From IMG/VR virus record IMGVR_UViG_3300032087_003848: a DNA stretch of 64,000 nt, one strand, 5' to 3'. Positions 6,558 through 45,169 of the stretch are shown here, one piece after another. Source of the stretch: an uncultured virus (IMG/VR IMGVR_UViG_3300032087_003848). Its lineage: Duplodnaviria; Heunggongvirae; Uroviricota; Caudoviricetes. Position 1 is the first letter of the stretch; the number at the start of each line of letters is the position of its first letter. The translations under genes were made by a program, and so were the position numbers. The notes beneath the pieces are model-generated. The model was not told where the DNA came from, searched no databases, and was given only the letters and a program-made list of their open reading frames with translations.

Positions 6558-6562
6558 ATCAA

Positions 6563-8127: not shown

Positions 8128-8135
8128 AATACCAC

Positions 8136-10747: not shown

Positions 10748-11013
10748 CCCTCTTTATTCTCATAATCGGTAATTAGTTTTCTTACTTTCATAGCGACATT
10801 TTTAATTTCATCAGCGAGGTCCAAATACTGTTGGCTTCTTCTTTTATCAATATAAGCAAACCTAGCCAACTCAGGAACAAGACCGTTTACTCCCTTGTGA
10901 AATTTGGTTTTATTCATAGTCTGCCGTAACAATTTAGAAACTTCTTCTCTAGGATATTGGATAGGATTAGCCATATCTAATCTTTCTGCTTTCAATACTT
11001 CTTGCCAATTCAT
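10744..11013 (-). CDS. WxxVLK-tag hypothetical protein
   Basis: MNWQEVLKAE. Confidence 0.7.
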   Translation of the reverse strand: MNWQEVLKAERLDMANPIQYPREEVSKLLRQTMNKTKFHKGVNGLVPELARFAYIDKRRSQQYLDLADEIKNVAMKVRKLITDYENKEG

Positions 11014-11017
11014 ATTA

Positions 11018-13717
11018 TCACTGCCTAAATGATGCTTTTATTAAATACACCTGTTCTTTGCTAATACCATATTCCTTTGATAAATTACCATGAGCGTCAT
11101 CGGATTTTACAATATTTTCAACTTCTAAATTACTCAAATCAATTTGATGAGTATGATACATGTCATCAATGAACGAACCTACATCTCTATTCAAATCAAG
11201 GAAACCATAAACAACAGGCTTTCCTAATTGCTTTCTAATAGCGTCATGAGCCTTTAACAACTTAACTACTCTTTCCGGTAAGTCCTTCTGTCTTTCTTCG
11301 TATATTCGCATGATTCTCTCATACTGTGATTTCATATTATCATCTTGTGTTAGAACACCCTGTTGTTCCAACAAGAAATTAAACAATGCTACTAGATACC
11401 TTCTCTGACCCGCAGATTCAAAGTATTCAGAAACTCTTTCTTTGATTGTTTTAGTGCTATCTTTAGGGAATCTCTTATCTTCTAATCTAGTATCTTCGAC
11501 TTCATTCATCAGAATGTAAATCTGAGTTGCTATCTCATTAGCAATCTTTTCTCTATTATTTTCTCCAAAAATCTCAGATATAGAATCCAACGCTGCTTGT
11601 CCTGCTACAAACGTATTACCTGTTATTTGTAAGTTTCTTGCATTTTTAATCTCAAAGAAATCGGCAATATTAGATAGGTCATTAACACCTATTTCATCCA
11701 CTTCTCCTTCGGATAGTATCTCATACGCTCGACCAAATGCTGACTCTAAACCTAACATATCTGCCCAAACACTGAATCCTCGATTAGCCCTGCTAGTGGA
11801 AAATTTAGGATTATTAATTACAGTGAAACCTGCTTGAACAGGAAGAGAAAAATAGTCTGTCATTCTCTTAATTAATTCCTTTAAGGGTTCAATAATGACT
11901 TTGTATTTCTCATCTATTTGTGCTAGAGAAGGGTCATCATCAATATCCCCTCGGAAAAATGACATGGTTTTACCGGCTGATAGCGCATCACCGTATCGAA
12001 CAGTTGTTCCTTTAGGTTGGCCTTTAGTTGTTCTAGAAGCAATATGGAAAGCAAAAGGAACAGGTTCAGATTTATCCCCTACCTTCTTGCCTTCGGGTAT
12101 TTCTCCTGCATCTTCCATTTCTTGAGTATAGGTTATTGGCTTTTCTTTTAGAGCATTAAGTAAGTCTTCTAAGAAATCCTTGATGTCATCTTCTCTATCT
12201 AATAATGACTGAGAATCCATTCCTTGATACAGTGAATTAAATTTTGAATTTCTAAGAATAGAAGCAGGAAGATAATATCCACCAAATGCAACTTCATCTT
12301 CTTCGACAATAGTTGTATCTTCTAATTCATCAGCCCACCTGTTTAATTGGGCTTCATAAGTGCCGGTAACTTTTAGTTCACCATCAGCAATATCATCTAA
12401 TTCATCATCAATATACTCAATCAATTCATCATACTGTTCTTCTGAAATACTAATGAGTTTCTTTTCAGTATCGTCTTTCTTCAATTCCCAACCTAAGAGA
12501 GGGTCAATTGATTCAAGACTGTTTTTCATTTGCTCAAACACTTGTTCATCTTTACCTTTGAATGCCATATCTTGAACTAATTTATTGTCTATTAATTCAG
12601 CCCCTTCTCTTATGGCTTCATCAGCCGAACCTGCCGCAGCAGTTTGTATGGCTTGCATAGCAGCATCTTTACTACTCTGTGCTTCTTGTTCTATTCTTTG
12701 CATCTCTTTGACTTCTTCTTGAGACATTTGTGTATCTTTTTCACCTACACCCTGTCTGTCTAATTCATCTTGTTGGAATTCAGCATACATGTCCTCAATT
12801 TTTTCTCCCACGTTGTTGAGTATCATCCAATACATTACTGTGGAATACAATCTTCCTAGAGCCTCCATTTGCATAGAATCCACTTTATCAAACTTAACAA
12901 TATATTGTAAATTCTTATTTGAATATCTATTCAAGACCTTTAACAATTCATCTCGATATTCTTGAGGTAAACTCTTTTCTTGTGCTACCGCAGTCCTAAA
13001 ATCATCTAATGCTTCTTTGAAAAAATCATATTTTCCGAAAACATTACCCCAATGGTTATACACTAATTGCCTAAATGTTTTCTTACTTACATCAACTGCA
13101 CCTAAAACGAAATCAAAATCTATTGGACTTTCCATAGTCTTTGCAGGGGAAATATCTGTTCTATATCTCCCTGTTCTTTCTCTAGGTCGTTCTTCGCCTT
13201 CGGCTGTATCTAATTCGTCTTCAATGAATAAATAAATTTCTTCAAAATTATGAGTCAAGTTTTCAACCAATTCATTTTGTTTCATATTTCTTAGAGAAGT
13301 AAGTGCAGAAGTTACTGTGTCTAAATCAGACGGACTGAATCCTCTTACTCTAAACCTCTCCGGCTTAAGGCGAATACTCGCTAATTGCTGATATCCTAAT
13401 TTTTGTCCCTTTAGGGTTTCAATGGTCAAGTTATTGATTACGTTTCTGATTTGTCCTATTGGAGTGCTTGACATCTCGCCTGCTCTTTCATCAGTTTTCT
13501 TATCAACCAAAGACCTAAATTCTCTTTCAAAACGATTAGTAAATCTTTTGATTTCTTCTTCACTCCCTTTATCCATCAAGAATTGTCTAAACTTTACAAG
13601 TTGTTGTCGAATGGCTCTTTGTTTTTTTGCGCCCTTCATAGCAGATATATCCTTGATGTCATTTTCAGAAACATCATATTCTGTATTTAATTCGGATAAA
13701 TCAATTACCTGCACCAT
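11018..13717 (-). CDS. Large acidic protein, putative virion/internal protein
   Basis: 899 aa ORF in structural arm; HTH-like C-terminus LSKEYGISKEQVYLIK. Confidence 0.6.
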   Translation of the reverse strand: MVQVIDLSELNTEYDVSENDIKDISAMKGAKKQRAIRQQLVKFRQFLMDKGSEEEIKRFTNRFEREFRSLVDKKTDERAGEMSSTPIGQIRNVINNLTIETLKGQKLGYQQLASIRLKPERFRVRGFSPSDLDTVTSALTSLRNMKQNELVENLTHNFEEIYLFIEDELDTAEGEERPRERTGRYRTDISPAKTMESPIDFDFVLGAVDVSKKTFRQLVYNHWGNVFGKYDFFKEALDDFRTAVAQEKSLPQEYRDELLKVLNRYSNKNLQYIVKFDKVDSMQMEALGRLYSTVMYWMILNNVGEKIEDMYAEFQQDELDRQGVGEKDTQMSQEEVKEMQRIEQEAQSSKDAAMQAIQTAAAGSADEAIREGAELIDNKLVQDMAFKGKDEQVFEQMKNSLESIDPLLGWELKKDDTEKKLISISEEQYDELIEYIDDELDDIADGELKVTGTYEAQLNRWADELEDTTIVEEDEVAFGGYYLPASILRNSKFNSLYQGMDSQSLLDREDDIKDFLEDLLNALKEKPITYTQEMEDAGEIPEGKKVGDKSEPVPFAFHIASRTTKGQPKGTTVRYGDALSAGKTMSFFRGDIDDDPSLAQIDEKYKVIIEPLKELIKRMTDYFSLPVQAGFTVINNPKFSTSRANRGFSVWADMLGLESAFGRAYEILSEGEVDEIGVNDLSNIADFFEIKNARNLQITGNTFVAGQAALDSISEIFGENNREKIANEIATQIYILMNEVEDTRLEDKRFPKDSTKTIKERVSEYFESAGQRRYLVALFNFLLEQQGVLTQDDNMKSQYERIMRIYEERQKDLPERVVKLLKAHDAIRKQLGKPVVYGFLDLNRDVGSFIDDMYHTHQIDLSNLEVENIVKSDDAHGNLSKEYGISKEQVYLIKASFRQ

Positions 13718-20593: not shown

Positions 20594-21055
20594 TCATGTT
20601 TTGCGGAAGTCTATATCAGCATCTAAATCTTGAGATTGTGTAGCAAACTTCATTCGCTTCATGTCATCATAATCCATCTTTCCCCAATTATAACAAACAA
20701 CTCTGAATACTTGATATTTAGGCCGAGGTGGATGTTGGTAAACACCATAGGCTACTTTATAGTCATAATTCATACCATTAATATTTTTTATTGTTTTATA
20801 ACCAATTTTGGTTTTTCCTTTTTTTGCTGATTCTAAATCTTCTAATATAGCACAAGCGACTTCTTCAGGAATAGAGAAAAAGGAGAAATAACCATCTGCT
20901 CTTGCATGAGGATGATTCTTTGCTTTGTCATAATATTCTTTTAATTTCTTAAGACAATCAGATTCCTCTTCTTCGGGGACAGTTTCATCACCCCAATCCA
21001 AATTAATCATTTGTCTTGAAGACTGATTTACGTTTTTTAGAATATCAAACCACAT
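20594..21055 (-). CDS. Paralog-array member (INLDW family)
   Basis: MWFDILK..QSSRQMINLDW..DCLKKL..PEEVAC. Confidence 0.8.
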   Translation of the reverse strand: MWFDILKNVNQSSRQMINLDWGDETVPEEEESDCLKKLKEYYDKAKNHPHARADGYFSFFSIPEEVACAILEDLESAKKGKTKIGYKTIKNINGMNYDYKVAYGVYQHPPRPKYQVFRVVCYNWGKMDYDDMKRMKFATQSQDLDADIDFRKT

Positions 21056-21662
21056 TGAAAACCGCCCTCGCTCTTTCTGCTAACTCTTCGAGTTTTTTAT
21101 TTTGTTCATCATTTTCATCTGTATATCCATCTTTGTCTTTCTTTTCTGTGGTAATGACTATGCTACAAAATTTCAACGGAACATTTCTTTCCATTAATAC
21201 CATAGTCCTACCGAGAAGAAATCTAGAATTTGTTTTATCAACCATACCAATTATATCATCATCATGAACAACATTAACTGCACCTTGACCCAAAGGTATC
21301 TTATTGAATGATTCTAACATCCGACAAACACGTTCTTCGGAAGAATTTTTATCTAAATATTCCCAAGCAATACTTATTCTATATGTAGCATTTGAACCGG
21401 GATATGTCCAAGTGGGTTTTTTTCTATCACCCTGTTTATAGAAAGTAATTTTATTTTCTTTAACATCGGTTTCCCATCCTCCGGTATCATCTTCTATTAG
21501 ATAGTCTTTAACAATATGACTAAAGGATTCATTCTTCTTACATTGAGCATTCCATCGTTTAATACAATCCTCTTCTTCCTCTTCAATATCTTCTTCCCAA
21601 TCAAGATTAATCATTCCCCTAGAAACCTGTTGTTGGTTTTTAATTATGTCCCACCACATCAT
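21045..21662 (-). CDS. Paralog-array member
   Basis: WWDIIK..SRGMINLDWEE..DCIKR..EERVC. Confidence 0.8.
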   Translation of the reverse strand: MMWWDIIKNQQQVSRGMINLDWEEDIEEEEEDCIKRWNAQCKKNESFSHIVKDYLIEDDTGGWETDVKENKITFYKQGDRKKPTWTYPGSNATYRISIAWEYLDKNSSEERVCRMLESFNKIPLGQGAVNVVHDDDIIGMVDKTNSRFLLGRTMVLMERNVPLKFCSIVITTEKKDKDGYTDENDEQNKKLEELAERARAVFNVV

Positions 21663-22321
21663 AACATCCCCCTAATTTTTTCGGCTATGTTAACACAACT
21701 GCTAGAAATTGATTCATGAATAAGCCGTGAATTTATCTTGCCTACGCCGGGAGTAAATTCTTTTGATTCTGTATATCGTAAAGGCCTGCAAAGAAACTTA
21801 AAGAATACAAATATGTCATTATTCCAATCCTCTAAACTAACTCTTGCTATAAACCCATCATCATCATATCTAGTTTTAGTATTATACTTTATTTCCATGT
21901 TTGGCCTTAAATTAAGTGAGCCTCTTGTGTCTTTTCTAGATATAGCATCACCTAGCGTTTCCTTCACCTTCTCATTGAATGCACAGGCTTCGTCTTCTGA
22001 TAATTTATCTATATCTCCAACATCAATTTCAACAGTAACGGCACTTCTAGTAAATCTATCTTTACTAGATTTGAAAGGCATTCTTTTATCTAACCACCCA
22101 CCACTGTCATATTCATCTGTAAAATCAAAGGCTTTAACTTCATTTCCGAAAGTAAACTCAATACCATTAAGAGAAGAAAGATATTGATGAACTGCCCTTA
22201 ATTTCTTTTTACAATCTTCTTCCTCTTGTTCTGAATCGGGAACCATCTCTTCATCCCAATCAAGACTAATCATTTCCTTAGAGGCCTGTCTAGTTTCTTT
22301 GATTATTTCCCACCACCACAT
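21659..22321 (-). CDS. Paralog-array member
   Basis: WWEIIK..SKEMISLDWDEE..DCKKKL..EDEAC; ends KIRGML. Confidence 0.8.
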   Translation of the reverse strand: MWWWEIIKETRQASKEMISLDWDEEMVPDSEQEEEDCKKKLRAVHQYLSSLNGIEFTFGNEVKAFDFTDEYDSGGWLDKRMPFKSSKDRFTRSAVTVEIDVGDIDKLSEDEACAFNEKVKETLGDAISRKDTRGSLNLRPNMEIKYNTKTRYDDDGFIARVSLEDWNNDIFVFFKFLCRPLRYTESKEFTPGVGKINSRLIHESISSSCVNIAEKIRGML

Positions 22322-22325
22322 TTTA

Positions 22326-22796
22326 TCACCTCCAATCTAATTCTTTAGGGTCAATGCCTACTCTTTCTTGACTACCGTATTTGGGAGCAGTTGTTCCGAA
22401 ATAAATAGTTTTGTGGCCTGCACCTCTCTTAAAAGTAACAAAGAGAAAACTTTTTTCATTCCAAACCATTTGTATTGTATATCCTTCAAAATCAGTAACT
22501 ATTGAATCAGTTATTATTCTTAATCTTTCATCCCTAGATGAGTATGGGGTTGTAAATTCGGCATCTGCAATCATCTCTAAAGATTTACACGCTACACTTT
22601 CCGGCAAATCTTTAATTTTCCAACTGTGAAAATCAGAAAAATAATATTTATGTTGTGTTACCTTTTCATACAGTTGTCTTAATCTCTTAACACAACTGTC
22701 TTCTTCTGCTTCCGGTTGAATTTCTTCATCCCAATCTAAGTTTATCAACTGTCTAGAAGTTTGCTTAGATTCTTTAAGGATATCAAACCACATCAT
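22326..22796 (-). CDS. Paralog-array member
   Basis: WFDILK..SRQLINLDWDEE..SCVKRL..PESVAC; ends ELDWR. Confidence 0.8.
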   Translation of the reverse strand: MMWFDILKESKQTSRQLINLDWDEEIQPEAEEDSCVKRLRQLYEKVTQHKYYFSDFHSWKIKDLPESVACKSLEMIADAEFTTPYSSRDERLRIITDSIVTDFEGYTIQMVWNEKSFLFVTFKRGAGHKTIYFGTTAPKYGSQERVGIDPKELDWR

Positions 22797-23365
22797 AACA
22801 TCCCCTTAATTTTTGTAACTAGAGAAACTATTTCATCAGAAATCGTGTCATATTCTTTTCTAAAAGGAAAATATGCTATGCTAAACTCTAAACTAAAATA
22901 ATTATCTTCTTTCGCAATAAACGAAACATCACCATTAAAACCAAGTTTATTAGGGGCATGATAAACTCTCGCATAAGAGTAAGACCCTTCGCCGTCACGC
23001 ACAGGAATACGTTCTTTTAGTTCCTTTTCATCAATAATTGCTTGACAGACCTGTTTTATATATTCATTAAATGTGCAAACTTCTTCATTGGAAAACTTAT
23101 CAAGAAACTGAAGATGAATCAATATATGAAACTTAGGATGAAGTCCCAACTCAAAATTATTAACGAATCTAGTAAAAGAACGTTGTCCATTATCTTGAGT
23201 TTCATTAAACTTAATATCATTAGAGGAACGAATATACTCATAAACTGAAAGAAGTTTCTTTTTACAATCTTCTTCCTCTTGCATTGGGACTGCTTCTTCT
23301 TCCCAATCTAAGTTTATCATTTCCTTAGACCGTTGTTGGGCTTTGATGATATTCCACCACATCAT
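22793..23365 (-). CDS. Paralog-array member
   Basis: WWNIIK..SKEMINLDWEEE..DCKKKL..NEEVC; ends KIKGML. Confidence 0.8.
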   Translation of the reverse strand: MMWWNIIKAQQRSKEMINLDWEEEAVPMQEEEDCKKKLLSVYEYIRSSNDIKFNETQDNGQRSFTRFVNNFELGLHPKFHILIHLQFLDKFSNEEVCTFNEYIKQVCQAIIDEKELKERIPVRDGEGSYSYARVYHAPNKLGFNGDVSFIAKEDNYFSLEFSIAYFPFRKEYDTISDEIVSLVTKIKGML

Positions 23366-23988
23366 AACATACCCCTAACTTTTTCTAAAAAGGCTCTAAT
23401 ACCGTCTTCTTCAATAGCAGGAGGATAAGGCATCCAATACATACTTATAGAAAATCTAGTATTACTCCCAACTGATGCTCCTGCATCTAATATTTTTGCA
23501 TTAAGCATGTGCTGACTGCCCTTTAGTTTACTCATTGTTCCTCGATTACTACCTGATAAAATATCAAATTCACCTACGTTTACTCTGCCACCTGCATTAG
23601 GAAGTTGTGGTTTATAGTCTATAGATTCGGGAGTGTCTAAATGAGCGATAGAATGGTCTAATACCTTCTCAAATTCTGCTAAAAAAACACATGCTGCTTC
23701 TTCAGTAAAAGAGTCCATTCCTCGATGATACGCCGTAATGTAAAGTGACATGTAAGGGTCTTGTCTTCGGCCATGAGTATAGCGTTGACCGAAGGCTTCA
23801 CCTTTGTCTAAATTAACCGCTTGATATTCAAAAGGCAAATCCTTGTTAGTTTTTAGAAAATCAAATAATTTCTGCAATCTATCTTTACATTTTTCATCTT
23901 CTTCTTCGGGTATCTGTTCTTCATCCCAATCTAGGTTAATTACTTCTTTAGAAGTCTGCCTAATATTTTTCAAAATATCCCACCACAT
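23362..23988 (-). CDS. Paralog-array member
   Basis: WWDILK..SKEVINLDWDEE..KCKDRL..EEAAC; ends KVRGML. Confidence 0.8.
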   Translation of the reverse strand: MWWDILKNIRQTSKEVINLDWDEEQIPEEEDEKCKDRLQKLFDFLKTNKDLPFEYQAVNLDKGEAFGQRYTHGRRQDPYMSLYITAYHRGMDSFTEEAACVFLAEFEKVLDHSIAHLDTPESIDYKPQLPNAGGRVNVGEFDILSGSNRGTMSKLKGSQHMLNAKILDAGASVGSNTRFSISMYWMPYPPAIEEDGIRAFLEKVRGML

Positions 23989-23992
23989 ATTA

Positions 23993-24706
23993 TCAATTCC
24001 AATATTGTGTTTCTATCGTTTCTTTTATAACTGATAGAATTTTTTTATCTAACGGCTTATCTTCTTCATTGAGTTCACCGGCCCAATAAAACCACTGTTC
24101 AGCAAGTGCATCAATACAATAGTCCGATAAATTGGGATTATTAGTATGGTTAATAAGTTCTTTTAAGAATTGGCACATCCTTCTTGTCCATGTATTTTTC
24201 CCACGATTAAACCTACTAACAAATGAATTTTTTTGAATAAAGTGTTCATCAGTGCCCTTTCTTGAATTAATTCTCTCTATCTCCATTTCAGGAGGACATC
24301 TAGCCCATGTTCTAGTAAGGCCCGAATTCATAAAATATTCAGGTGTGTCTTCTTTCCCAATAAAAATAAATATATCAAACCAACCTGTTCCTACTTTACT
24401 TGGTCTTAATTCAAAAGAAATGCCAACGTTAATGCCGCCTTCATTGAAATCTATACTTGGACTAGGAATATCTTGTTGAAATTTCTGCTTAACTAAACAA
24501 GCCACTTCATTAGGAATTTTATTTGTTATTGGCCCTTGAGGAATACGATGCGTAACTAAATCGTCATACTTAACAATAATATTATGATATTCCACAAGCC
24601 ACTTTAAACAGTCTTCATCTTCTATGGAAATCGCTTCTTCATCCCAATCTAAATTGATTAATTGTCTAGAGGACTGTTTAGTGTCTTTAATGATATTCCA
24701 CCACAT
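23993..24706 (-). CDS. Paralog-array member
   Basis: WWNIIK..SRQLINLDWDEE..DCLKWL..PNEVAC. Confidence 0.8.
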   Translation of the reverse strand: MWWNIIKDTKQSSRQLINLDWDEEAISIEDEDCLKWLVEYHNIIVKYDDLVTHRIPQGPITNKIPNEVACLVKQKFQQDIPSPSIDFNEGGINVGISFELRPSKVGTGWFDIFIFIGKEDTPEYFMNSGLTRTWARCPPEMEIERINSRKGTDEHFIQKNSFVSRFNRGKNTWTRRMCQFLKELINHTNNPNLSDYCIDALAEQWFYWAGELNEEDKPLDKKILSVIKETIETQYWN

Positions 24707-26391: not shown

Positions 26392-26554
26392 GCTAATTTC
26401 TCCAAAAAATTTTGGGGGATTTTTTTTAACCTATTCATTAAATTTCTCAAAAAATGTGGCGGAATTTATTTGGCACTTGCGCCCGGTTTTAAATTTTATG
26501 TTTTATATTCCCAGAATAAGAATCAGTGGTTTTAATTATTAGGCTTTTATTTAT

Positions 26555-26758: not shown

Positions 26759-26890
26759 GTGAACAATACTGTGCAAAGTGGCTTTGGTTATAATCGTTCT
26801 GTTATAGAACAGTAAAATAGGCTCGAAACTGTTAAAATATGACGATTTAGGCCTTATGCTTTAAAACAGAACAAAATAAAAATTTTGGAA

Positions 26891-26938
26891 CAAAGCCATA
26901 TGGTTGTAAATTACTTTGTAAACGCAGGTTTTACAACC
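26891..26938. repeat. Cassette-boundary element 1
   Basis: CAAAG-CCATATGGT-N9-CTTTG; ggttgtaaa/tttacaacc stem. Confidence 0.85.
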
Positions 26939-26964
26939 CTATATTTCCTATTCGGGTTTTTATT

Positions 26965-27365
26965 GTCTAAGGGGCACTTTGGACAGGGATTGACTGAATA
27001 AAGATACGGACAGGTCTTAAAGTGAACATATCGAGGTGGTTCTCGCCGATAGTGTGTTACAAAGCGGTTTAGTCGCCGACTTTGAAACATAACCGGTAAA
27101 GTTGAGTTGTGACCAACTTAATTCTCAATATATGTTGCAGTGGAGGTTTATCAGAACATTGACTGTTCGACAAAACCCTCCCTTATCGGTAATCAATTAA
27201 ATCCGATATCCCACCCATTATATTCCCATATGGAGAAACGAAGCCGAACAGGTCAGGTATATAGGTCAAAATTAGTTTTGAGGTTATTTGCTAGCAATAT
27301 CCCAACTAATAGAAGTCCGAAGATTAGTAAATCCTAGACACTTAGTAGGCGGAGTTTCTTCTTTA
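26965..27365 (+). ncRNA. Candidate ~400 nt structured RNA or long leader
   Basis: No convincing ORF; several hairpins; TATA-like sequence at ~26940. Confidence 0.4.
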
Positions 27366-27377
27366 CAGGTGATTAAC

Positions 27378-27620
27378 ATGAGAAGGGCACAAAAAAACGG
27401 TAATTTGAAAGTCAGACATAACAACTATCTTCAGAAAGAAAGAAGAAGAGTGATTATTGCACAGCGAATTAAGATTAGAACAATGTGGGCTAAGGCTGAT
27501 TGGTCGGGTATGTCACAATCACAGGCTCTAAGATTCTTTAAGGGATATTACCCAACATCTGCTATTAAGAAAGCAGCCAAGATTAAGTGTGGGCCTCGAC
27601 TATCCTCCTTATGGGAGTGA
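27378..27620 (+). CDS. Small basic protein (cassette 1)
   Basis: AGGTGA RBS before ATG 27378. Confidence 0.7.
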   Translation: MRRAQKNGNLKVRHNNYLQKERRRVIIAQRIKIRTMWAKADWSGMSQSQALRFFKGYYPTSAIKKAAKIKCGPRLSSLWE

Positions 27621-27648
27621 TAGTTGGGGTCTTCCTTGCTTAACAGCC

Positions 27649-27689
27649 CAAAGTGAAACAATACCATATGGTAGTGCTTTGCTGCTACC
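27649..27689. repeat. Cassette-boundary element 2
   Basis: CAAAG-N9-ACCATATGGT-N4-CTTTG. Confidence 0.85.
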
Positions 27690-27706
27690 CCAAGAGTGGG
27701 CTTGGC

Positions 27707-27925
27707 TCAAGTTTTGAAACTCTTGAGCCAAACCCTATCATGAGGCCATAATTCACGGCCAATACTTCGTAAAGCCAACCAATAAGCATCAATATGATAC
27801 CTATTGCTTGATTCATCAATAAGATTAAGTAAATTATTAATCGCTTCTTTGAGGTCCGGTTCAATTACCGATTCAATCATTAATTCATTTACTCTCTTTA
27901 TTCTTCCATCTAAATTACTTATCAT
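27707..27925 (-). CDS. hypothetical protein (cassette 2)
   Basis: GAGGTGA RBS. Confidence 0.7.
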   Translation of the reverse strand: MISNLDGRIKRVNELMIESVIEPDLKEAINNLLNLIDESSNRYHIDAYWLALRSIGRELWPHDRVWLKSFKT

Positions 27926-27934
27926 TTAATCACC

Positions 27935-28267
27935 TCAATACATCCCATAAAAGGAATGCCACTTTGTTATTTCTGTGGTTACACCTGTCCAATAGTCACC
28001 ATTCAAAAACCACATATAATTACGTTGTTGAATTCTTACCTTTGGTAATGCATTAAGTCGGCTTTTAGTTGTTGCAGTAGTCCATCCACAAGATGAAATA
28101 AATAGTCTGTTTTCGTTTGTAATAAAAGCAATACAATTCCCATGTAATAACATCTCTCTTGAACCGTCGTCATATACCTTTACTTTGGTATTGCCTCGGT
28201 TAAATCGGTTTCCATGTAATAGTGCTTTTGCCGCATCTCTGCTTATCTTTGACATGTAATTAGGCAT
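27935..28267 (-). CDS. Phage-type hypothetical protein (cassette 2)
   Basis: LHGNCIA..GWTTATTKSRLNAL motif. Confidence 0.75.
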   Translation of the reverse strand: MPNYMSKISRDAAKALLHGNRFNRGNTKVKVYDDGSREMLLHGNCIAFITNENRLFISSCGWTTATTKSRLNALPKVRIQQRNYMWFLNGDYWTGVTTEITKWHSFYGMY

Positions 28268-28301
28268 TAACGGCAGTATTAGTTGGGGAGTTCATTTCAT
28301 C

Positions 28302-28335
28302 AACAAAGTTGCTACCATATGGTAGTATCTTTGTT
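28302..28335. repeat. Cassette-boundary element 3
   Basis: AACAAAG-N5-ACCATATGGT-N5-CTTTGTT. Confidence 0.85.
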
Positions 28336-28437
28336 ACTTGGGTAGGGAGGGCTAAAAATGGTTTAGAGAAACCATAGGGGGCAAACCCCCCATGATTTCG
28401 ACTCCCCTAATGGGTGAAACTAGGCACTGCCAACCAA

Positions 28438-28995
28438 TCAAGCCTTCTCGGTCTTCTTTTCCGGCTTAGGTTTGATAGGTGGTGGATTAGGTGCATGTAG
28501 CGCACCTTCCAACAATTCGGTCCCTGCTGCATTATCTCGCTTTGCTTTGATTGATGCGTCTAATTCTTTGGTAACTAGAGTAATGATAGTTTCCTTCATT
28601 GACTCAAGTGCCCAATAGCCGCCCTTTCTAGCACTAGGCGTAATAACCAACCTCAGAACCTCTAAAACAGGGTCTTCTAATTCATTGATATGGGACTTAG
28701 CCACCTCAATATTATGAGACTTCCATTTTATTTGCTCATCAGTGTGGGCTATGGAACCGGTCTTAATAACCGGAAAATCATCAAAATATTTCCCGTTATT
28801 GCGAATTGTGTCCCATTCGCCTTGTCGTTCTTTCAATTCTGCGGGTTCGTCACCTTTGATGTCTTTTGCAAAGTCAATAGACATCTTGATGAGCGAAAGC
28901 CGCTTCTTCTGCTTCGAGTCCAATTGCGATTCGTCTTGAGCGTCAACCCATGTCTGAATGACAATTAGATGCTTGTTAAAGTTAGCCAACTTCAT
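28438..28995 (-). CDS. Cassette protein family member A
   Basis: MKLANF..WDTIRNNGKYFDDFP..TPSARKGG..PPP; paralog of 30100 and 31352. Confidence 0.75.
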   Translation of the reverse strand: MKLANFNKHLIVIQTWVDAQDESQLDSKQKKRLSLIKMSIDFAKDIKGDEPAELKERQGEWDTIRNNGKYFDDFPVIKTGSIAHTDEQIKWKSHNIEVAKSHINELEDPVLEVLRLVITPSARKGGYWALESMKETIITLVTKELDASIKAKRDNAAGTELLEGALHAPNPPPIKPKPEKKTEKA

Positions 28996-29045
28996 ACACT
29001 TTACCTCATAAAAGGACATTTAGCACACATTAGGGTGCTAAACGG

Positions 29046-29107
29046 CAAAGAACCGTTTGTTACCATATGGTTGTAAACTTCTTTGAAGACGTAGTGCATT
29101 TACAACC
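29046..29107. repeat. Cassette-boundary element 4
   Basis: CAAAG-N11-ACCATATGGT-N9-CTTTG; ggttgtaaa/tttacaacc stem. Confidence 0.85.
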
Positions 29108-29150
29108 TTGAAGATTGAATTAAGGATTTAATTACTAGGAGGCATATTAT

Positions 29151-29882
29151 ATGGTAACTTACAAGAGAAAGGTTGAGTTTGTCTATGGAAATAAGATGGA
29201 TGACTTGACCTTTAGAAAACTAGGAGCAGAATTACAGAAGAACGGGCTAACCATTATCTCTATGTTCAGAGACAATGTTGAATACGGTTTTAAGAAAGTA
29301 GCAACAACCAACATCTCTTATGATGTATTTGTTGCAGATGAAACAGTAGGCAGTTTTAGAGTATCTCAAGACGCAAGAGAAGCAGTTAGAATGTTAGAAA
29401 AACTAATTGATAAAAGACCAATTAACTCTAGGCTAGTATCTAATACAACCGCCAAGAAGCAATGGAAAGAAATCTTTGGTGACATATTAATGGTTGATAA
29501 GAAAATAATTCAATTAGACGGCTCTCAATCTATCTTTTGGGACAGAGACATCACCTATGAATTAGAAGATGATGAAGACGTTAAAATGAATGCTACGTTC
29601 AATAACAGTAATAGCGGCTTGAAATTAACTTTTGAAATAACATGGAAGCCTGAAAAGATTCAAAGAAAAGATGCCATTGAAGAAAAGATGGTTGACTTGA
29701 CATTGAATGATATTGCTACATTTCAAAAAGTAATTGAGAAGAAAATCAAACTCAAGAAGTTTGGTAGTTATGACATCAACGAACCTACAATCAATTGTAA
29801 GTTTGATGCTATGACACACACCTCTTCAGAGTGTGCGCCGGATATAATCCAAAAAGTGCGTGACGCTAAGAAGGGTCTTTGA
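29151..29882 (+). CDS. hypothetical protein (cassette 4)
   Basis: 243 aa, AGGAGG RBS, followed by hairpins and T-run (29913-29962). Confidence 0.8.
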   Translation: MVTYKRKVEFVYGNKMDDLTFRKLGAELQKNGLTIISMFRDNVEYGFKKVATTNISYDVFVADETVGSFRVSQDAREAVRMLEKLIDKRPINSRLVSNTTAKKQWKEIFGDILMVDKKIIQLDGSQSIFWDRDITYELEDDEDVKMNATFNNSNSGLKLTFEITWKPEKIQRKDAIEEKMVDLTLNDIATFQKVIEKKIKLKKFGSYDINEPTINCKFDAMTHTSSECAPDIIQKVRDAKKGL

Positions 29883-29967
29883 ATTCACATCTCCGTGTGA
29901 AGTAAACAAAAAAACCGGATTATACCTCCCGGTTTTCCTCTAGTTCGGGCTAGGGGTTTTTTACGGG

Positions 29968-30027
29968 CAAAGCAGTATCAACCATATGGTTGTTAATCGC
30001 TTTGCGAATGTAATGGTATTAACAACC
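29968..30027. repeat. Cassette-boundary element 5
   Basis: CAAAG-N8-ACCATATGGT-N9-CTTTG; ggttgttaat/attaacaacc stem. Confidence 0.85.
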
Positions 30028-30099
30028 CTATACTCCCCACAGGCATATTATTGCGTCGGGAGAATAGTTAGACGCACTTAACTCACATAGGTGATTAAG

Positions 30100-30612
30100 A
30101 TGAAGTTAGAAAATTGGAATATAAATGCAGCACAGGTTAGCCTGTGGCTACAGAAGGAAGACAGACCTGTTAACCCGGCAATTGAGTTATCAATTATGCT
30201 AGGTAACGATGCCGAAAACGATGACGAAAGAGACACTTATTGGGGTGCTATCAGAAATCTAGGTAAGAAATACTCAGATTTCCCTATGGCCCGCCGAGGC
30301 AGAGAATCGGACATTCCTCAAGAAGTAGTTCTAAATGCTACTTCTGTGAAGAACACAGTAATAGATGCCTTTGCAGGTATTTCTAATGCAGATGTTATTC
30401 TGTCCGTTATTTTGCCACATGGCCGAACCGGCGGTGCATATGCATCTATCGACGACTTGGCTCAAGATATGGGCGACAAAGCATACCGCACACTGCTTAA
30501 GGCTTACAATGCAAAGCCGGAGCAACGTTGGGATGGTTCAATGGATGGCAACGTGCCATTAATGACCCCGCCACCGGTCAAACAACAAAAGGGAGGCGAT
30601 GAGGAAGAGTGA
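30100..30612 (+). CDS. Cassette protein family member B
   Basis: MKLENW..WGAIRNLGKKYSDFP..LPHGRTGG..WDG..PPP..DEEE. Confidence 0.8.
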   Translation: MKLENWNINAAQVSLWLQKEDRPVNPAIELSIMLGNDAENDDERDTYWGAIRNLGKKYSDFPMARRGRESDIPQEVVLNATSVKNTVIDAFAGISNADVILSVILPHGRTGGAYASIDDLAQDMGDKAYRTLLKAYNAKPEQRWDGSMDGNVPLMTPPPVKQQKGGDEEE

Positions 30613-30689
30613 GTCTAACTCATTCTCCCGTCGCACCCCTTTGGGGGTGGGATTAGAATCCAATTAAGGGTTCTATTTCCGTTACACCG

Positions 30690-30713
30690 CAAAGCGAATA
30701 TGAACCATATGGT
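30690..30713. repeat. Cassette-boundary element 6 (left arm plus core only)
   Basis: CAAAG-N9-ACCATATGGT; no CTTTG follows. Confidence 0.8.
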
Positions 30714-31351: not shown

Positions 31352-31828
31352 ATGAATGATGAAGAATGGAATTTGGTAAGAGGACAGGTTGTTGAATATC
31401 TAGCAGCCGACGATAGTCTCAATGATTCGTTGAGGCAAATTGTCAATTTGAATTTACAAATTGGTGATAGCGACGCTGAAGAAAGAGATGCGGTTTTGGG
31501 AGCATTGAAGTCTATCCTAAAAGGAAGACTAGGTTCACCTTTTGGAAAGAGAGGAAGCAAATCAACAGTTCCGGCACATGTTAGAGTTTCAATTGATACA
31601 ATCGGAAATCATGTAAGAGCAGCCGCAATTGCATATTTCAACAGTAGCCCATACATGCCTATGATTATTCATAGGCACAGTAAGTCCGGTGGTGGCCTTT
31701 TCGAGAGTGCCGAAGATTATGCTGATGTTATCGAAAAGCGTGAAAGGTCCAAACTACAAAGGGCTTATTCCACAGGCGTATGGGATGGAAATCTAGAGAA
31801 TCTAGGTCCATCTGATGAAGAAGAGTGA
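31352..31828 (+). CDS. Cassette protein family member C
   Basis: ERDAVLGALK..PFGKRG..HRHSKSGGG..WDG..DEEE. Confidence 0.75.
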   Translation: MNDEEWNLVRGQVVEYLAADDSLNDSLRQIVNLNLQIGDSDAEERDAVLGALKSILKGRLGSPFGKRGSKSTVPAHVRVSIDTIGNHVRAAAIAYFNSSPYMPMIIHRHSKSGGGLFESAEDYADVIEKRERSKLQRAYSTGVWDGNLENLGPSDEEE

Positions 31829-32134: not shown

Positions 32135-32295
32135 GGGCTATTGGCGCAGTCAGGCAGCGCAACGGGCTTTTAATGAGGTTTGATAGTTAAAACAAACATG
32201 TCACCTCTGAATTATCTAGTCCCTTGTTCAACTTGGATGAGTTTGTTTCCTCAAAAGAAATCCGTTGGTCGCAGGTTCAAATCCTGCATAGCCCG
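32135..32295 (+). tRNA. tRNA-Lys(UUU) with 87-nt BHB intron (32173-32259)
   Basis: Acceptor GGGCTAT/ATAGCCC, T arm GCAGG-TTCAAAT-CCTGC, anticodon TTT 32169-32171, canonical 37/38 bulge-helix-bulge; CCA not encoded. Confidence 0.92.
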
Positions 32296-40604: not shown

Positions 40605-41834
40605 ATGGAAATGACATTACAAATAAGAAAACCAAATGATTCTAATGAAAGTTGGAAGACTAAAATAAAAATTGAAGGAGTAAACGCTACTTATTTAGGA
40701 ATATCTAATCATATTACCTATGTAAGAACTGCTAAAGACCCTGTTCATCAAGGAATAGTTAATTGGTGGAAAACTCTGTTCAGTAGCAGAGGACAAAGAT
40801 ATTACGGCAGACTTCCTAAAGAATATGAAATGGTAATTACTATTCAGACATTACCTATTGTTATCTCTAAGAATAAAACTAGGTATTCTATCAATGGTCA
40901 AACTGAGTCGGCTAACACTATCCATAATGTATTAGCAAGAGTGCTTTACAAAAGTATCTTTACTCAAGATGCAGCACAGTTAATGAAATCCATGATGGAT
41001 TATCTAGCGACTCCTGAAGAAGTGAAATATTGTCTAGAAAATAGATTACCATATCATTTCTTTGATGATTTCGTTAAGAAAGATTGCAGACTAAATATTA
41101 TGCAAATAGGCAAAGATGAGTGCGCTATTGAATTAAGTGATGGTCTTTGGGGCACACTAAGAAATAAAGAACTACTTCATCTGTATTCTTTCTATGCTCT
41201 AAATAAGAAAAGAAACACAAAATGGTCTTTCGTTTCACCTCAGAAGTTATTTGAATACACTGTTGGGAGGACTCCCTCAGAAGCAGAAAGTGTTCTAATG
41301 GTTGAGTTTTTACAACAGAACAGAACAAGAGATATTGTTGAAAAGAGGGCACTACAATTAGTAAATGATTTGTTAGCACAACATGGTGAAAGACTGAGAG
41401 CAGTTTGGAAAGATAATCAATTACAGACACTATTTGTTAAAGGTAAGGATTATGATTGGAAATTAGTTTCTGACCCATACAAGAGCAACATACAAATGGT
41501 TTCCACTTATGTTTGGCAACCCAAATATTCCACTAGAGATTTCCATGAACTTCTTGGAAAACATTTGAAAAAACTAGAAGAAACTGAAGATTGGAATGCT
41601 AAAAATCCTAAGAAAGCAAAACCTCTTCCCGAAAGACCTACCAATGAATATGCTTGGAAAGGACCAATATGTATAGATAATATGGCTCCCGATTCTCCAA
41701 TAGGCGACCAATTTGGGGCTAGAGCATTAGCGTTACTGAACGACACAATGACAATAAAAATAGTAAGCACAATCAAGAGATACTTGGTTACGAATAAAAA
41801 TATAAATAGGATTGATTTGAATGAAATGCGATGA
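40605..41834 (+). CDS. Hypothetical protein with candidate C-terminal E2/UBC-like motif
   Basis: GPICIDNMAPDSPIGDQFGARALALLND resembles the UBC GxICLD..SP..LLxD segment. Confidence 0.4.
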   Translation: MEMTLQIRKPNDSNESWKTKIKIEGVNATYLGISNHITYVRTAKDPVHQGIVNWWKTLFSSRGQRYYGRLPKEYEMVITIQTLPIVISKNKTRYSINGQTESANTIHNVLARVLYKSIFTQDAAQLMKSMMDYLATPEEVKYCLENRLPYHFFDDFVKKDCRLNIMQIGKDECAIELSDGLWGTLRNKELLHLYSFYALNKKRNTKWSFVSPQKLFEYTVGRTPSEAESVLMVEFLQQNRTRDIVEKRALQLVNDLLAQHGERLRAVWKDNQLQTLFVKGKDYDWKLVSDPYKSNIQMVSTYVWQPKYSTRDFHELLGKHLKKLEETEDWNAKNPKKAKPLPERPTNEYAWKGPICIDNMAPDSPIGDQFGARALALLNDTMTIKIVSTIKRYLVTNKNINRIDLNEMR

Positions 41835-42675
41835 ATGTAATAGCACAGATAATTATTTTGATGAGCGAATGGGAGAACGTATTTGTTCTGATTGTGGTCT
41901 AGTTTTAGTTACCGAGTCATTTGAAGAAACAACTCACATACTGAATTCAGCAGGTGAAGTTGTTCATTCAAGCGATAATAACAGACTAGGTTCTGTTGTT
42001 ACCGGTAAAGGTTCTTACAAATTCAACAAGTTTGGAAAGAATAGTGTTATGCCAAAAAATATCCAAAATGGACTGATGCATTGTAACATGACTCTTAGTG
42101 CAGTAGCACCTCAGATTGATGTAAAGGATAGAATAGAACGTGTCTATATTGAATTACAAAGAGCAAACATCATGACATCATATCCTTATGAAGTTAGAGC
42201 AGCAGCAATAGTCCATTATGTCCTAAGAGAGAATGGCACACCCCATACTTATAACGAGGTAATAAAGGAATACGATTGTAACAGAAAAAAGGTTTCTAGA
42301 TTATCTAGAAAAATAAATCAATTTTATGGCAATAGAGTCATAAGACAAGAAAATCCTTCATTTAGTTTGCTCAAAACATTAAATCTAATTACTAATGATT
42401 TATTGTTTCATAATCAGGCTAGAAAGGTATTAGCAGTATTGGAACCAATAGTTGCTAAATCAGATTATAATAAAGGCAGAGCATATTATTCAGCAATATG
42501 TTGGATAGCAAGTAATGTGTTTGTTAGAAATGATATTACTTCTGTATTAATCTCAGAAGTAACAGAATTTACTCGATGGAACATCCACAAAGAAACTAAA
42601 TTATTAGTTGGTTTGTTAGGATTCGATTCAGTTAAAGAATTAAAAGGAAAAGACATAAACAAAATAGGTGAATAA
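41821..42675 (+). CDS. tfb: Transcription initiation factor IIB (TFB) homolog
   Basis: Zn ribbon CDEC..GERICSDCGLV plus two cyclin-like repeats. Confidence 0.9.
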   Translation: MKCDECNSTDNYFDERMGERICSDCGLVLVTESFEETTHILNSAGEVVHSSDNNRLGSVVTGKGSYKFNKFGKNSVMPKNIQNGLMHCNMTLSAVAPQIDVKDRIERVYIELQRANIMTSYPYEVRAAAIVHYVLRENGTPHTYNEVIKEYDCNRKKVSRLSRKINQFYGNRVIRQENPSFSLLKTLNLITNDLLFHNQARKVLAVLEPIVAKSDYNKGRAYYSAICWIASNVFVRNDITSVLISEVTEFTRWNIHKETKLLVGLLGFDSVKELKGKDINKIGE

Positions 42676-43246: not shown

Positions 43247-43807
43247 ATGAGAAAAATATTGATAATAGGAGTAGGCGGAATTGGGTCATTTTTGGTTCAG
43301 TTTTTAGATAAAGTAAAACTGTATGATATAACGGTAGCAGACCCCGATAAAGTGGAGGAGAAGAATATACCCTATCAAAACTTTGGCAATAGTCATATTG
43401 GGCATAACAAAGCATCAGTTATGAACAATACTTACTATAAGTCTGTTAATAAGGCAATCCAATTTCCTATTCTGAGTGAACAACAAATGAAAGGATATGA
43501 TTTGGTTATCTGCTGTGTTGATAATTTAGGTGTCAGAAAGACCTTGTATAACACAAGTCTTAAATGGCTCGATTTACGGGCACAAGGCAGAAATGCGGCA
43601 CTTGTGTCACATAAGGCGGAAGCAAACATGTATGATACATTATTAGCAGGACCGGATGGTTCTTTCAGTTGTCAAGGAGATTCTTGGGATGGAACAAATA
43701 AAGGTGTTCAATTTATGCAAATAGCGATTGCAGGAGTTGGCGCACAATGGGTTCAAAGATATTTCAACGGTGAAGAAGTTAAAGATTTCATGGTGATGAA
43801 CGTATGA
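43247..43807 (+). CDS. ThiF/MoeB/E1-family activating enzyme
   Basis: GVGGIG, DPDKVEEKN, NKA, CCVDN..R, candidate catalytic Cys in FSCQ. Confidence 0.92.
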   Translation: MRKILIIGVGGIGSFLVQFLDKVKLYDITVADPDKVEEKNIPYQNFGNSHIGHNKASVMNNTYYKSVNKAIQFPILSEQQMKGYDLVICCVDNLGVRKTLYNTSLKWLDLRAQGRNAALVSHKAEANMYDTLLAGPDGSFSCQGDSWDGTNKGVQFMQIAIAGVGAQWVQRYFNGEEVKDFMVMNV

Positions 43808-44022: not shown

Positions 44023-44577
44023 ATGGTTAAAACATGCAGATGGAGTAAAACAGAAGAAAATAGACTAATGGAACTTGTAAGAGATGAAGTATCTTGGTTA
44101 GATATTTCAGAAGAATTACAGAGAAGTATTCCTGCATCTAAAAAAAGATTCAAGATGCTTGATGCGGCTAGATTAGAAAAATTAGAGAAAGAACGTGATG
44201 AATTTCATGAAACTAATCAATGGGCAGGCGACCATAAGGGATTTATTCCAATAGAGAATAATAGTTGGAATGCTGAGAAAGACTTTGATTTATTGGTTAA
44301 TTTCTATGAATTGAGTATAGATGAAGCAAAAGAAAGATTTGGTTTATCCTACGGAGAAATAGCAGGTCGCCTAGAATACCTTATCGAAAGCACAGAACCT
44401 GCCCATATTTCGATGCTTATGGAAGCGTCTAAGGCCATCCGGTCTAAGAAGATACACAAGAGCGTTTTAGCGAATAACTCGCAAAAGGTTCAGCGTAAAC
44501 TAAAGAAAATAGATAAATTATCTAAAAAGATAGACAAGTTACATCTATCTATCCTTGAAGAATTAGGAGATGAATAA
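44023..44577 (+). CDS. Myb/SANT-like HTH repeat protein
   Basis: RWSKTEENRL.. and SWNAEKDFDL.. repeats. Confidence 0.6.
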   Translation: MVKTCRWSKTEENRLMELVRDEVSWLDISEELQRSIPASKKRFKMLDAARLEKLEKERDEFHETNQWAGDHKGFIPIENNSWNAEKDFDLLVNFYELSIDEAKERFGLSYGEIAGRLEYLIESTEPAHISMLMEASKAIRSKKIHKSVLANNSQKVQRKLKKIDKLSKKIDKLHLSILEELGDE

Positions 44578-45169
44578 AATGGGAAGATTGAAAGATAAGT
44601 ATTTTGATGAAATTAACAACGAAGATGATAGCGGCTATGAGGAATTCAAAGCCCTTGAAGAAGCAAGAGAAAGAGCAGAGCAGCATATTCTGAATGTTTG
44701 GGTTCAAGAGGCTAATTTAACTCTTGAATCTATTGGTGTTGAATGGAAAGATAGACATGAGGTTGATGAATTAGCATATAAGAACTTTAAATTTCATGAT
44801 GCAATTTGGCATGCTTCAACAGAAATTCTTCCTAATCTAGAAGTGCAAGTAGTAATTGATAGTCAAAACAATTGTTATGTTACTACGGGTTCTCCCGGCT
44901 ATGTTGAGTTTGGTATGCAACCACCAATAGGAATGAAATTACCTATTAGGTGTTGGATTCATACACATCCATTTGGTTCCGCCTATTTTAGTGGAACAGA
45001 TATCAGAACAGTTTCTATTTGGCAGTCACAAATGACTGAGGCATATGTATTAGGCGGTGAAGGTCACTTTGGTTATTGGCATCAAGATAAGCCTAAGCAA
45101 CTGAAAATTTATAGAGAATTTAACTTAGAAAGAATACAAAATTGGAATAAAGGAGAGGAAGAAGAATGA
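44570..45169 (+). CDS. JAB/MPN+ (JAMM) metallopeptidase
   Basis: EVQ...WIHTHPFGSAYFSGTD matches E..HxH..SxxD. Confidence 0.9.
   Translation: MNKMGRLKDKYFDEINNEDDSGYEEFKALEEARERAEQHILNVWVQEANLTLESIGVEWKDRHEVDELAYKNFKFHDAIWHASTEILPNLEVQVVIDSQNNCYVTTGSPGYVEFGMQPPIGMKLPIRCWIHTHPFGSAYFSGTDIRTVSIWQSQMTEAYVLGGEGHFGYWHQDKPKQLKIYREFNLERIQNWNKGEEEE

Follow-up and report, generated by a model that had tools for sequence, protein, structure and literature searches.

Introduction

In T4-type phages, composites of an early promoter and a stem-loop (PeSLs) occupy intergenic positions and are concentrated in a hyperplastic region of small ORFans, to which insertions, deletions and replacements map. According to the reports that describe them (Arbiol et al. 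2010, PMC2839356; Comeau et al. 2014, PMC4122927), the stem-loops are G/C-rich terminators whose placement relative to the promoter is variable, and mini-circles were demonstrated. Here we describe an array of small gene cassettes at positions 26,891 to 30,713 of a 64,000-nucleotide stretch of DNA from an uncultured tailed virus (IMG/VR record IMGVR_UViG_3300032087_003848), which is referred to as the window throughout. Each interval between the short palindromic cores of this array is a self-contained cassette, and the core, ACC-ATAT-GGT, is flanked by two back-to-back hairpins. The stems of these hairpins covary. Among related viruses the cassettes have changed places and orientation, been acquired and been lost, and homology stops at the core. 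We read the joint, with a probability of about one half, as a boundary and regulatory module, with crossover taking place on rare occasions at the palindrome that the joints share.

An initial annotation of the window, made from the sequence alone, had listed mobile promoter stem-loops of the T4 type as one alternative, and PeSLs turned out to be the closest known analogue. Two likenesses stand out. One is the composite of promoter and stem-loop, here a hairpin followed by an archaeal TATA box; because the promoter is archaeal-type, this likeness holds only by analogy. The other was tested and found: the array is a hyperplastic ORFan region with the breakpoints of indels and replacements at the motif. 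The differences lie in the parts. The published accounts place sigma-70 −35/−10 promoters in a T4-type myovirus, whereas the array belongs to a magrovirus with a TFB homologue and TATA boxes. Moreover, the magrovirus joint has an invariant 10-bp palindrome, two back-to-back covarying hairpins and a C-TTT-G loop, its half-sites stand at both cassette ends including promoterless junctions, and its cassettes are inverted as well as swapped.

A core motif confined to the array

The core CCATATGG occurs seven times in the window, where 0.82 matches are expected, and none of 100 shuffles reaches seven. All starts (26896, 27226, 27664, 28315, 29063, 29982 and 30705) lie within 26896-30712. The extended form ACCATATGGT is exact at five sites, and the first site reads GCCATATGGT. 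The full form CAAAG..CCATATGG..CTTTG is present four times against an expectation of 0.00. At two or fewer mismatches, 41 copies of the core are found with 25.9 expected; the excess is about the number of true sites, and degenerate copies are not enriched beyond these. Much of the initial description of the element was reproduced, namely six cores at spacings of 768, 651, 748, 919 and 723 bp, their intergenic position in the window, the five exact extended cores, a CAAAG abutting the first core, the missing outer arm of the last site and gene orientations of +,−,−,+,+ across the five intervals. The list of six cores was correct, but the seventh, at 27226, had been overlooked.

A helicase-anchored search yielded nine related IMG/VR loci with 75-98% protein identity. 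Each has its own array just upstream of the helicase with 4-11 cores; L006 ends at a contig edge and shows one core. In near-complete relatives 7/8, 6/8, 8/9 and 4/6 of the cores are clustered, and a fifth near-complete record, of 184.7 kb, has two core clusters of 10 and 7. A reversed-pattern control gave no match in any of these five. A genome-wide count of the motif, which the initial annotation had proposed, thus placed it in the array region of complete relatives. The 184.7-kb record (G006, the IMG/VR record behind L004; L301) consists of two concatenated different magroviruses whose helicases share ~68% nucleotide identity. Its second array comes from a different magrovirus at this identity, and the record was rejected as a close pair.

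A pattern scan of IMG/VR returned at least 213 stretches with the motif, many of them as arrays. Among 185,579 prokaryote genomes the scan found 74 stretches, 72 of which were single, scattered and chance-like, and the full motif formed no arrays in the host genomes of this set. The sole prokaryote array lies on NZ_NZTP01000027.1 (L278/L279), a contig of 14.7 kb with at least five sites that was binned as Altibacter and is probably a magrovirus contig mis-binned into a bacterial metagenome-assembled genome. As the prokaryote scan gave scattered singles and one probably mis-binned virus contig, we regard the array as a virus feature and not as a host motif. The main text of the magrovirus literature searched mentions no array, palindrome, hairpins, promoters or cassettes of this kind. 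Literature searches with the motif strings gave, among the matches listed, cloning or primer uses and, in combination with archaeal virus, irrelevant matches.

Two hairpins back to back at each joint

The inverted CAAAG and CTTTG arms had initially been taken for the two sides of one symmetric element, which had to be revised. In a collection of 483 distinct sites used for hairpin anatomy, the left and right spacers are of equal length in 28 of 205 sites and match beyond the first base at 22-41%. Since the spacers are unequal and non-complementary, the arms are not paired with each other, and an extended palindrome forming one large cruciform is ruled out. Each arm forms the loop of a separate hairpin, and either half, when followed outward from the core, has the form GG-T-stem-C TTT G-stem'-A-CC. 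Therefore, ACC-ATAT-GGT joins two back-to-back hairpins, being the end of one, four bases and the start of the next. The centres flanked by CAAAG and CTTTG comprise 308 exact CCATATGG, 22 longer matches containing the core and a single true variant.

The Watson-Crick run from the GG foot has a mean of 4.43 bp versus 2.48 in shuffled tails, and a foot stem of at least 5 bp is formed by 202/495 halves as compared with 98/2475 shuffled controls. In 30 distinct 19-nt hairpins, 85.4% of the cells pair, against 72.7% after shuffling and 21-48% in slid controls. Their covariation score is 0.309 versus 0.120 shuffled, a value reached in 0/500 shuffles; these 19-mers were picked for symmetric length, which favours the three foot pairs, and the signal is carried by pairs 4-7. 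Orthologous hairpins upstream of genes of the F0 family, described below, keep stems of 8-10 bp through compensatory changes, as in the stem pairs GGTTGTTAAT/ATTAACAACC, GGTTGTTTTT/AAAAACAACC and GGTTGCTTTT/AAAAGCAACC. Hairpin length ranges from 17 to 60 nt. Folding is not good in every half-site: a 5-bp foot is reached in 5/10 halves of the window. Conversely, 5/6 window hairpins of the joint form with a foot of at least 5 bp abut a core.

The two strands of a half-site are not equivalent. The outward-read strand folds more stably as RNA than its complement on gene-start sides (100 vs 41) as well as on gene-end sides (83 vs 31). On the same strand, 38 G:T stand against 13 A:C mismatches, and the ratio GT/(GT+AC) of 0.75 versus 0.65 shuffled is reached in 6/2000 shuffles. 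That G:T is less depleted than A:C modestly suggests folding of a single strand, with a polarity shared by the two sides of the core. A count of isolated mismatches proved unusable for strand asymmetry because of too few events.

Cassettes rearranged between relatives

Cassette gain, loss, reordering and inversion in related genomes, for which the initial annotation had suggested looking, were all seen between syntenic flanking arms. In maps of gene families and of DNA cassettes, the arms are syntenic among relatives and the content, order and orientation of the array differ. The Kyano_Gp96-like gene, encoded by the minus strand in the window, lies on the plus strand of L002; the 243-aa gene differs in the reverse sense, being plus-strand in the window but minus-strand in L002, L007 and L008. 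Paralogs of the F0 family occur in both orientations among relatives. DNA homology gives cassette A as A+ for the window, L001 and L002, but A− for L003, L004 and L005. The cassettes run A,H,B,I,J in L004 but H,B,A,I,(new),J in L005; A,H,B versus H,B,A is a translocation, which occurs besides inversion.

In alignments with 80-nt flanks, identity is 0.83-1.0 inside a cassette up to the core and 0.2-0.5 outside, and both hairpins of a cassette travel with that cassette. A breakpoint test was based on 33 high-scoring segment pairs (HSPs) of at least 150 bp between arrays, with the near-identical pairs window/L001, L007/L008 and L004/L009 left out. Within 20 nt of a core centre lie 41/91 HSP ends in arrays, compared with 8% expected, and within 5 nt 21/91, compared with 2.1% expected; these ends depend on one another, and alignments tend to stop at the conserved core as such. 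By the HSP ends and the flanked alignments alike, homology stops at the core, in agreement with the initial expectation that breakpoints coincide with it.

A half-site is present at both ends of every cassette, and the outermost sites of an array are half-sites. Junctions of all types carry them: 255 intergenic sites divide into 147 tandem, 62 divergent and 46 convergent junctions, and a further 42 of the 337 sites examined lie inside open reading frames (ORFs) by a crude ORF call.

No rearrangement was seen in any of three close pairs (window/L001 at 93.5% identity, L007/L008 and L004/L009). In L004 and L005 the shared cassettes have diverged to about the same extent as the flanks (77-85% vs 83%), which indicates that rearrangement events are rare; the tempo is slow. 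Many contigs of co-occurring relatives from the same metagenomes share only 26438-26484 and 26874-26913 and diverge right after core 1. Three to five loose contig ends fall at 26908, and assembled run contigs also break at core 1. The joints 26908>29056 and 27682>29979 in public run contigs have sides of 20-21 nt. They are most likely cross-matches between the sites of co-occurring relatives and are therefore no evidence for rearrangement. The public runs were seen as assembled contigs, which are unable to show rare junctions, and two of them, X8 and X10, with identical figures, are possibly the same data set.

The initial annotation had noticed no recombinase in the window. This was borne out, and a check of the remaining genome, for which a 98%-related IMG/VR record was used, likewise found none. 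No tyrosine, serine, DDE or HUH recombinase was detected by Pfam in 135 ORFs of at least 50 aa, which comprise the window and 34 kb of the 98%-related genome (L224, L225) absent from it. PHROGs revealed no recombinase among 45 larger ORFs.

A magrovirus with archaeal-type promoters

The window derives from a magrovirus resembling group B; magroviruses are tailed viruses of Marine Group II archaea. Its split PolB, ribonucleotide reductase and GroEL match the description of group-B magroviruses in PMC5434244. No close relatives were found among GenBank phages. The left arm, on the minus strand, encodes portal, terminase and other structural proteins (Pfam and PHROGs). An HNH-like region occurs in the protein encoded at 6766-8127. 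The right arm, on the plus strand, encodes a UvrD-type helicase, a class II ribonucleotide reductase, GroEL, an ATP-dependent ligase, an RFC-like ATPase, PolB split into two genes and a PD-(D/E)XK nuclease (60945-61880); a second ORF with a ligase domain is present in the related genome (L225). The array stands at the point of divergence of the two gene arms, and the GC skew switches sign at ~26-30 kb.

Further evidence for a magrovirus comes from a TFB homologue, the ATP-dependent ligases and an intron-bearing tRNA. The tRNA match (32135-32295, plus strand, 161 nt, 50.6 bits in Rfam) is presumably intron-bearing, a similar match of 159 nt is found in L002, and ARAGORN called no tRNA in the window. 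An archaeal histone fold was matched weakly in Pfam. The TFB/TFIIB homologue (41821..42675, plus strand, 284 aa) lies outside the array and provides context for the promoters. It matches the Pfam zinc ribbon PF08271 (E 2.5e-7) and, in a phmmer search of the PDB, TFIIB over residues 14-163 (E 0.0037). The homologue is full-length, with a Zn ribbon and two cyclin folds. For its AlphaFold2 (AF2) model (pLDDT 67.6), all 32 Foldseek matches at E ≤ 0.001 are TFIIB, TFB or Brf chains (best E 1.5e-7; Pyrococcus TFB 3.3e-6), and the gene is conserved in L001, L006, L007 and L008. The magrovirus literature searched makes no mention of TFB or TFIIB. Since the intron-bearing tRNA, the histone-fold match and the TFB homologue fit an archaeal host, the promoters are read as archaeal TATA boxes with a B recognition element (TATA/BRE).

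On gene-start sides, the hairpin is followed by ACC-[C/T]-T-A-T-A in fixed register (T 72%, A 77%; 157 halves), which places a TATA-like box 2 nt after the hairpin. Gene-end sides run into C-rich or GC-hairpin sequence instead. The distance from TATA to ATG peaks at 25-30, 35-44 and 70-75 nt, where 70/157 halves conformed to the strict pattern. The first class fits leaderless mRNAs, the second has a short leader with GGTGA or GGAGG, and the third comprises the leaders of F0-family genes. Virus promoters outside the array, for example upstream of 31352 and 32358, have TATA-like boxes without the ACC foot and without a hairpin. The viral TFB may pair with the unusual ACC-TATA promoters of the cassettes. 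Reading CTTTG and the core as a Bacteroidota-type −33/−7 or a sigma-70 −35/−10 promoter was considered and dropped on inspection and given the archaeal identity. A contig from an RNA library (27525-27711) spans site 2, which is no proof of transcription.

Features and cargo of the array

The left boundary of the array is formed by core 1 (GCCATATGGT, 26896..26903) with its abutting CAAAG and no left hairpin, a form conserved in relatives. Its right hairpin, GGTTGTAAA..CTTTG..TTTACAACC (26902..26938, plus strand), has a 9-bp outer stem and is followed after 2 nt by the TATA-like box TATATTT (26940..26946, plus strand), 25 nt upstream of the start of a match to the manA RNA. This RNA (Rfam RF01745; 26965..27217, plus strand) is the cargo of cassette 1. 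The match scores 62.8 bits against a gathering score of 55.2 (E 1e-15) and is full-length, covering model positions 1-192 of 192. Rfam classes manA as a cis-regulatory RNA; its other known carriers are marine bacteria and cyanophages. The arrays of L002, L003, L004, L005, L007 and L008 yielded no match to it. The extra CCATATGG core (27226..27233), which has no hairpins, lies 9 nt after the 3' end of the manA RNA and is also present in L001. It is followed by a small gene of 80 aa from its ATG (27378..27620, plus strand; the ORF is open from a TTG at 27288) that has no family match.

Site 2 (CAAAG..ACCATATGGT..CTTTG; 27649..27681) lies between convergent genes, so that neither side faces a gene start. 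It is followed by two minus-strand genes, one for a small protein of 72 aa with no function assigned (27707..27925) and one for a protein of 110 aa (27935..28267) belonging to Kyano_Gp96 / PHROG 554 (PHROG E 2.8e-19, Pfam E 3.7e-16). The family is named from cyanophages, and its presence in a cassette suggests that genes have passed between bacterial and archaeal viruses. The left side of site 3 (28304..28333) faces the start of this gene at 28267; here a TAATACT box precedes the ATG by 26 nt. An F0-family paralog of 193 aa (28438..29019, minus strand) fills the next interval.

Site 4 (29046..29085) lies between divergent genes and both of its sides face gene starts. Its right hairpin (29069..29107, plus strand) has a 9-bp outer stem and an inner CTTC TTT GAAG, and it precedes a gene of family F13 (243 aa; 29151..29882, plus strand) with no function assigned. 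After this gene and just before site 5, a run of six T (29957..29962, plus strand) may serve as an archaeal oligo-T terminator. Site 5 (29968..30004) has the full form. The 10-bp stem of its right hairpin, GGTTGTTAAT CGC TTT GCG .. ATTAACAACC (29988..30027, plus strand), is followed by CTATACT and shows compensatory changes among orthologues. The F0-family paralog of cassette A (170 aa; 30100..30612, plus strand) comes next. The left hairpin of site 6 (30669..30706, minus strand) has a 5-bp outer stem, and core 6 (30705..30712), which has no right hairpin, is the right boundary of the array. A conserved F0-family copy (31352..31828, plus strand) lies outside the array, upstream of the helicase, and is present in all relatives compared.

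The F0 family (160-240 aa), of which the window has three copies, supplies cassette cargo more often than any other. Its members have an R-rich FPxARRGRES motif, HGRTGG and an acidic C-terminus, and the AF2 model is all-alpha (pLDDT 81.8). A nuclease or recombinase was considered and rejected: Foldseek gave nothing at E < 1, only low-probability Cas1 rows with a TM-score of ~0.2. A VIA-wide structure search returned only a generic three-helix bundle (Z 8.1), the ESM Atlas no usable match and phmmer against the PDB none.

Other genes of the virus and its relatives

At the inner end of the structural arm, seven tandem paralogous genes (20594-24706, minus strand; 153-237 aa, family F1) show internal DNA similarity; no family matches were found for them. 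On the right arm, a ThiF/E1-like protein (E 1.9e-14) and a weak JAB-domain match (E 0.0024) are encoded two genes apart (43247-43807 and 44570-45169, both plus strand) and may constitute a ubiquitin-like modification pair of the small archaeal modifier protein (SAMP) type in the virus. In relative G002 (L224), a 2296-aa ORF (5552-12442, minus strand) lies in the tail module, two genes from a tape-measure-like gene. Hairpin promoters of an N4-like or crAss-like virion RNA polymerase were considered and rejected; this ORF is without Pfam match and has a weak C-terminal match to a tail-protein PHROG.

Discussion

A cassette opens with a structured half-site, GGT-stem-C TTT G-stem-ACC, with an archaeal TATA box 2 nt on, continues with one or two small genes or a structured RNA, and is closed at the far end by a second half-site. 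Neighbouring cassettes abut via the invariant palindrome ACC-ATAT-GGT. This anatomy, the covariation of the stems and the rearrangement of cassettes among relatives are established by the sequences, whereas the role of the joint is a matter of interpretation. The core with its twin hairpins could be a boundary element bound by a dimeric factor of virus or host, and the bound factor might insulate or co-regulate the cassette promoters. As the core is the sole sequence common to unrelated cassettes and is palindromic, any two cores could recombine. Rare core-core recombination by general repair or recombination enzymes would then delete, insert, translocate and invert units. The logic would be that of T4-type PeSLs, but with archaeal promoters and a palindromic joint as its parts.

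Several observations weigh against this explanation. Sites without a promoter to regulate exist, as 46/255 intergenic sites, including site 2, lie between convergent genes; a plain regulator operator, another alternative of the initial annotation, leaves these sites unexplained. Half-sites capping both cassette ends in any orientation look more like a mobility signal than a regulatory need. Ordinary homologous recombination would call for more identity than the ~10 bp that the sites share. The core is invariant in an all-or-none manner, with no gradient of weak sites, which is unusual for an operator family. The spacing of core and TATA follows hairpin length (17-60 nt), which makes a phase-dependent activator unlikely. 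Finally, no binding protein was identified, and F0, the commonest cargo, gave no informative fold match.

A possible but doubtful alternative is that the cassettes have a dedicated means of mobility. An unrecognised enzyme of virus or host would recognise the twin hairpins in their folded state and then cleave the ATAT linker or exchange strands within it. The conserved GGT/ACC foot and C-TTT-G loop around a free stem might be recognised much as an integron attC is read by shape. The palindromic joint would permit insertion in either orientation, and each insertion would regenerate two complete joints. A half-site at both cassette ends whatever the gene direction and sites at convergent junctions speak for such an enzyme, and half-sites at the outer boundaries are expected if cassettes bring their own hairpins. 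The invariant 8-bp core, the stems that covary beneath conserved loops, the breakpoints in the core and the occurrence of both translocation and inversion (order in L004 vs L005) argue in the same direction. The lesser depletion of G:T than of A:C, together with the greater stability of the outward-read strand, hints at a single-stranded folded form, but this asymmetry is small after base composition. Moreover, no recombinase family appeared among the 135 ORFs (by Pfam) or the 45 larger ones (by PHROGs), 0/3 close pairs are rearranged, and the L004/L005 cassettes, about as diverged as their flanks, argue for rare events. We tentatively consider that magroviruses carry a hairpin-guided platform for cassette integration, an archaeal-virus counterpart of the integron, in which promoter-bearing cassettes, including the manA RNA cassette, would insert either way and regenerate the joint; this is rather improbable on present evidence.

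An integron- or shufflon-like platform had been proposed in the initial annotation. The cassettes are shuffled between relatives, as it expected, but membership of either class is not supported by the defining features looked for. Like an integron, it is an array of small unrelated cassettes whose content varies between relatives, and its signal would be read partly as a folded hairpin with a conserved foot and a free stem, by analogy with attC. In contrast to integrons, no IntI-type match (PF00589) was found in the 135 ORFs, and the magrovirus array has no attI and no common Pc. Integron cassettes are promoterless and in one orientation, whereas magrovirus cassettes have their own TATA boxes and mixed orientation. 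Each is bounded by two half-sites with GGT/ACC foot and CTTTG loop instead of a single attC with R''/L''-L'/R' boxes, and the core is a palindrome, not an R-box. With the R64 shufflon and its recombinase Rci, the array shares segments bounded by short repeats, in either orientation and varied order. It differs in that no Rci-type recombinase was found in the 135 ORFs and in that its segments are independent genes, not alternative gene ends. Switching within a population was not seen either, with 0/3 close pairs rearranged and contigs unable to show rare variants.

Elements built from hairpins or inverted ends were compared as well. REP/BIME elements (REPINs) are also intergenic pairs of inverted small hairpins, but those of the magrovirus are confined to one 4-kb array, joined by an invariant palindrome and delimit mobile cassettes, and no RAYT/HUH gene was found in the 135 magrovirus ORFs. 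The IS200/IS605 type (HUH Y1) has end hairpins on the same strand, while here they are inverted, so that a given strand carries TTT in the loop of one end and AAA in that of the other; no Y1_Tnp match was obtained in the 135 ORFs. Regarding transposons with terminal inverted repeats and miniature inverted-repeat transposable elements, the cassettes have conserved inverted ends and ATAT is common to neighbours, where a target-site duplication would be indistinguishable from a fixed core; no transposase was found in the 135 ORFs.

It is unlikely that the element is purely transcriptional, that is, that twin hairpins and palindrome are a bidirectional terminator or insulator fused to promoters and that cassette differences arise by ordinary illegitimate recombination between genes, without a special role of the core. 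Such an element would account for sites at every kind of gene junction, for TATA boxes in fixed register with the hairpins, for the T-runs and GC hairpins that precede half-sites on gene-end sides and for a virus that encodes TFB. Against it, 21/91 homology ends fall within 5 nt of the core when 2.1% are expected. Divergent junctions need no terminator, yet they carry full sites (62/255). Promoters inside cassettes and outside the array do without core and hairpin, and the hairpin loop has only three T, which is short for an archaeal oligo-T terminator. Iterons or origin-recognition boxes of a replication origin at the divergence of the arms are very improbable, for although the GC skew changes sign at ~26-30 kb and the repeats have a palindromic, AT-centred sequence, the sites extend across 3.8 kb, separated from one another by a gene, vary in number from 4 to 11 between relatives and travel with individual cassettes.

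Magroviruses rank among the most abundant viruses of archaea in the surface ocean; these viruses and their hosts are uncultured. The array provides a sequence-level handle on their transcription, with a TATA box in fixed register with a hairpin alongside a viral TFB. It also shows how magroviruses acquire and reshuffle accessory genes, with a cargo that includes the manA RNA and a gene family common to cyanophages, and the array of invariant 10-mers is a practical marker for mis-binned magrovirus contigs. If a dedicated enzyme does read the twin-hairpin joint, the joint would be a new class of recombination site. If there is no such enzyme, the array would be an archaeal-virus parallel to PeSL-driven modular shuffling, built from entirely different parts.

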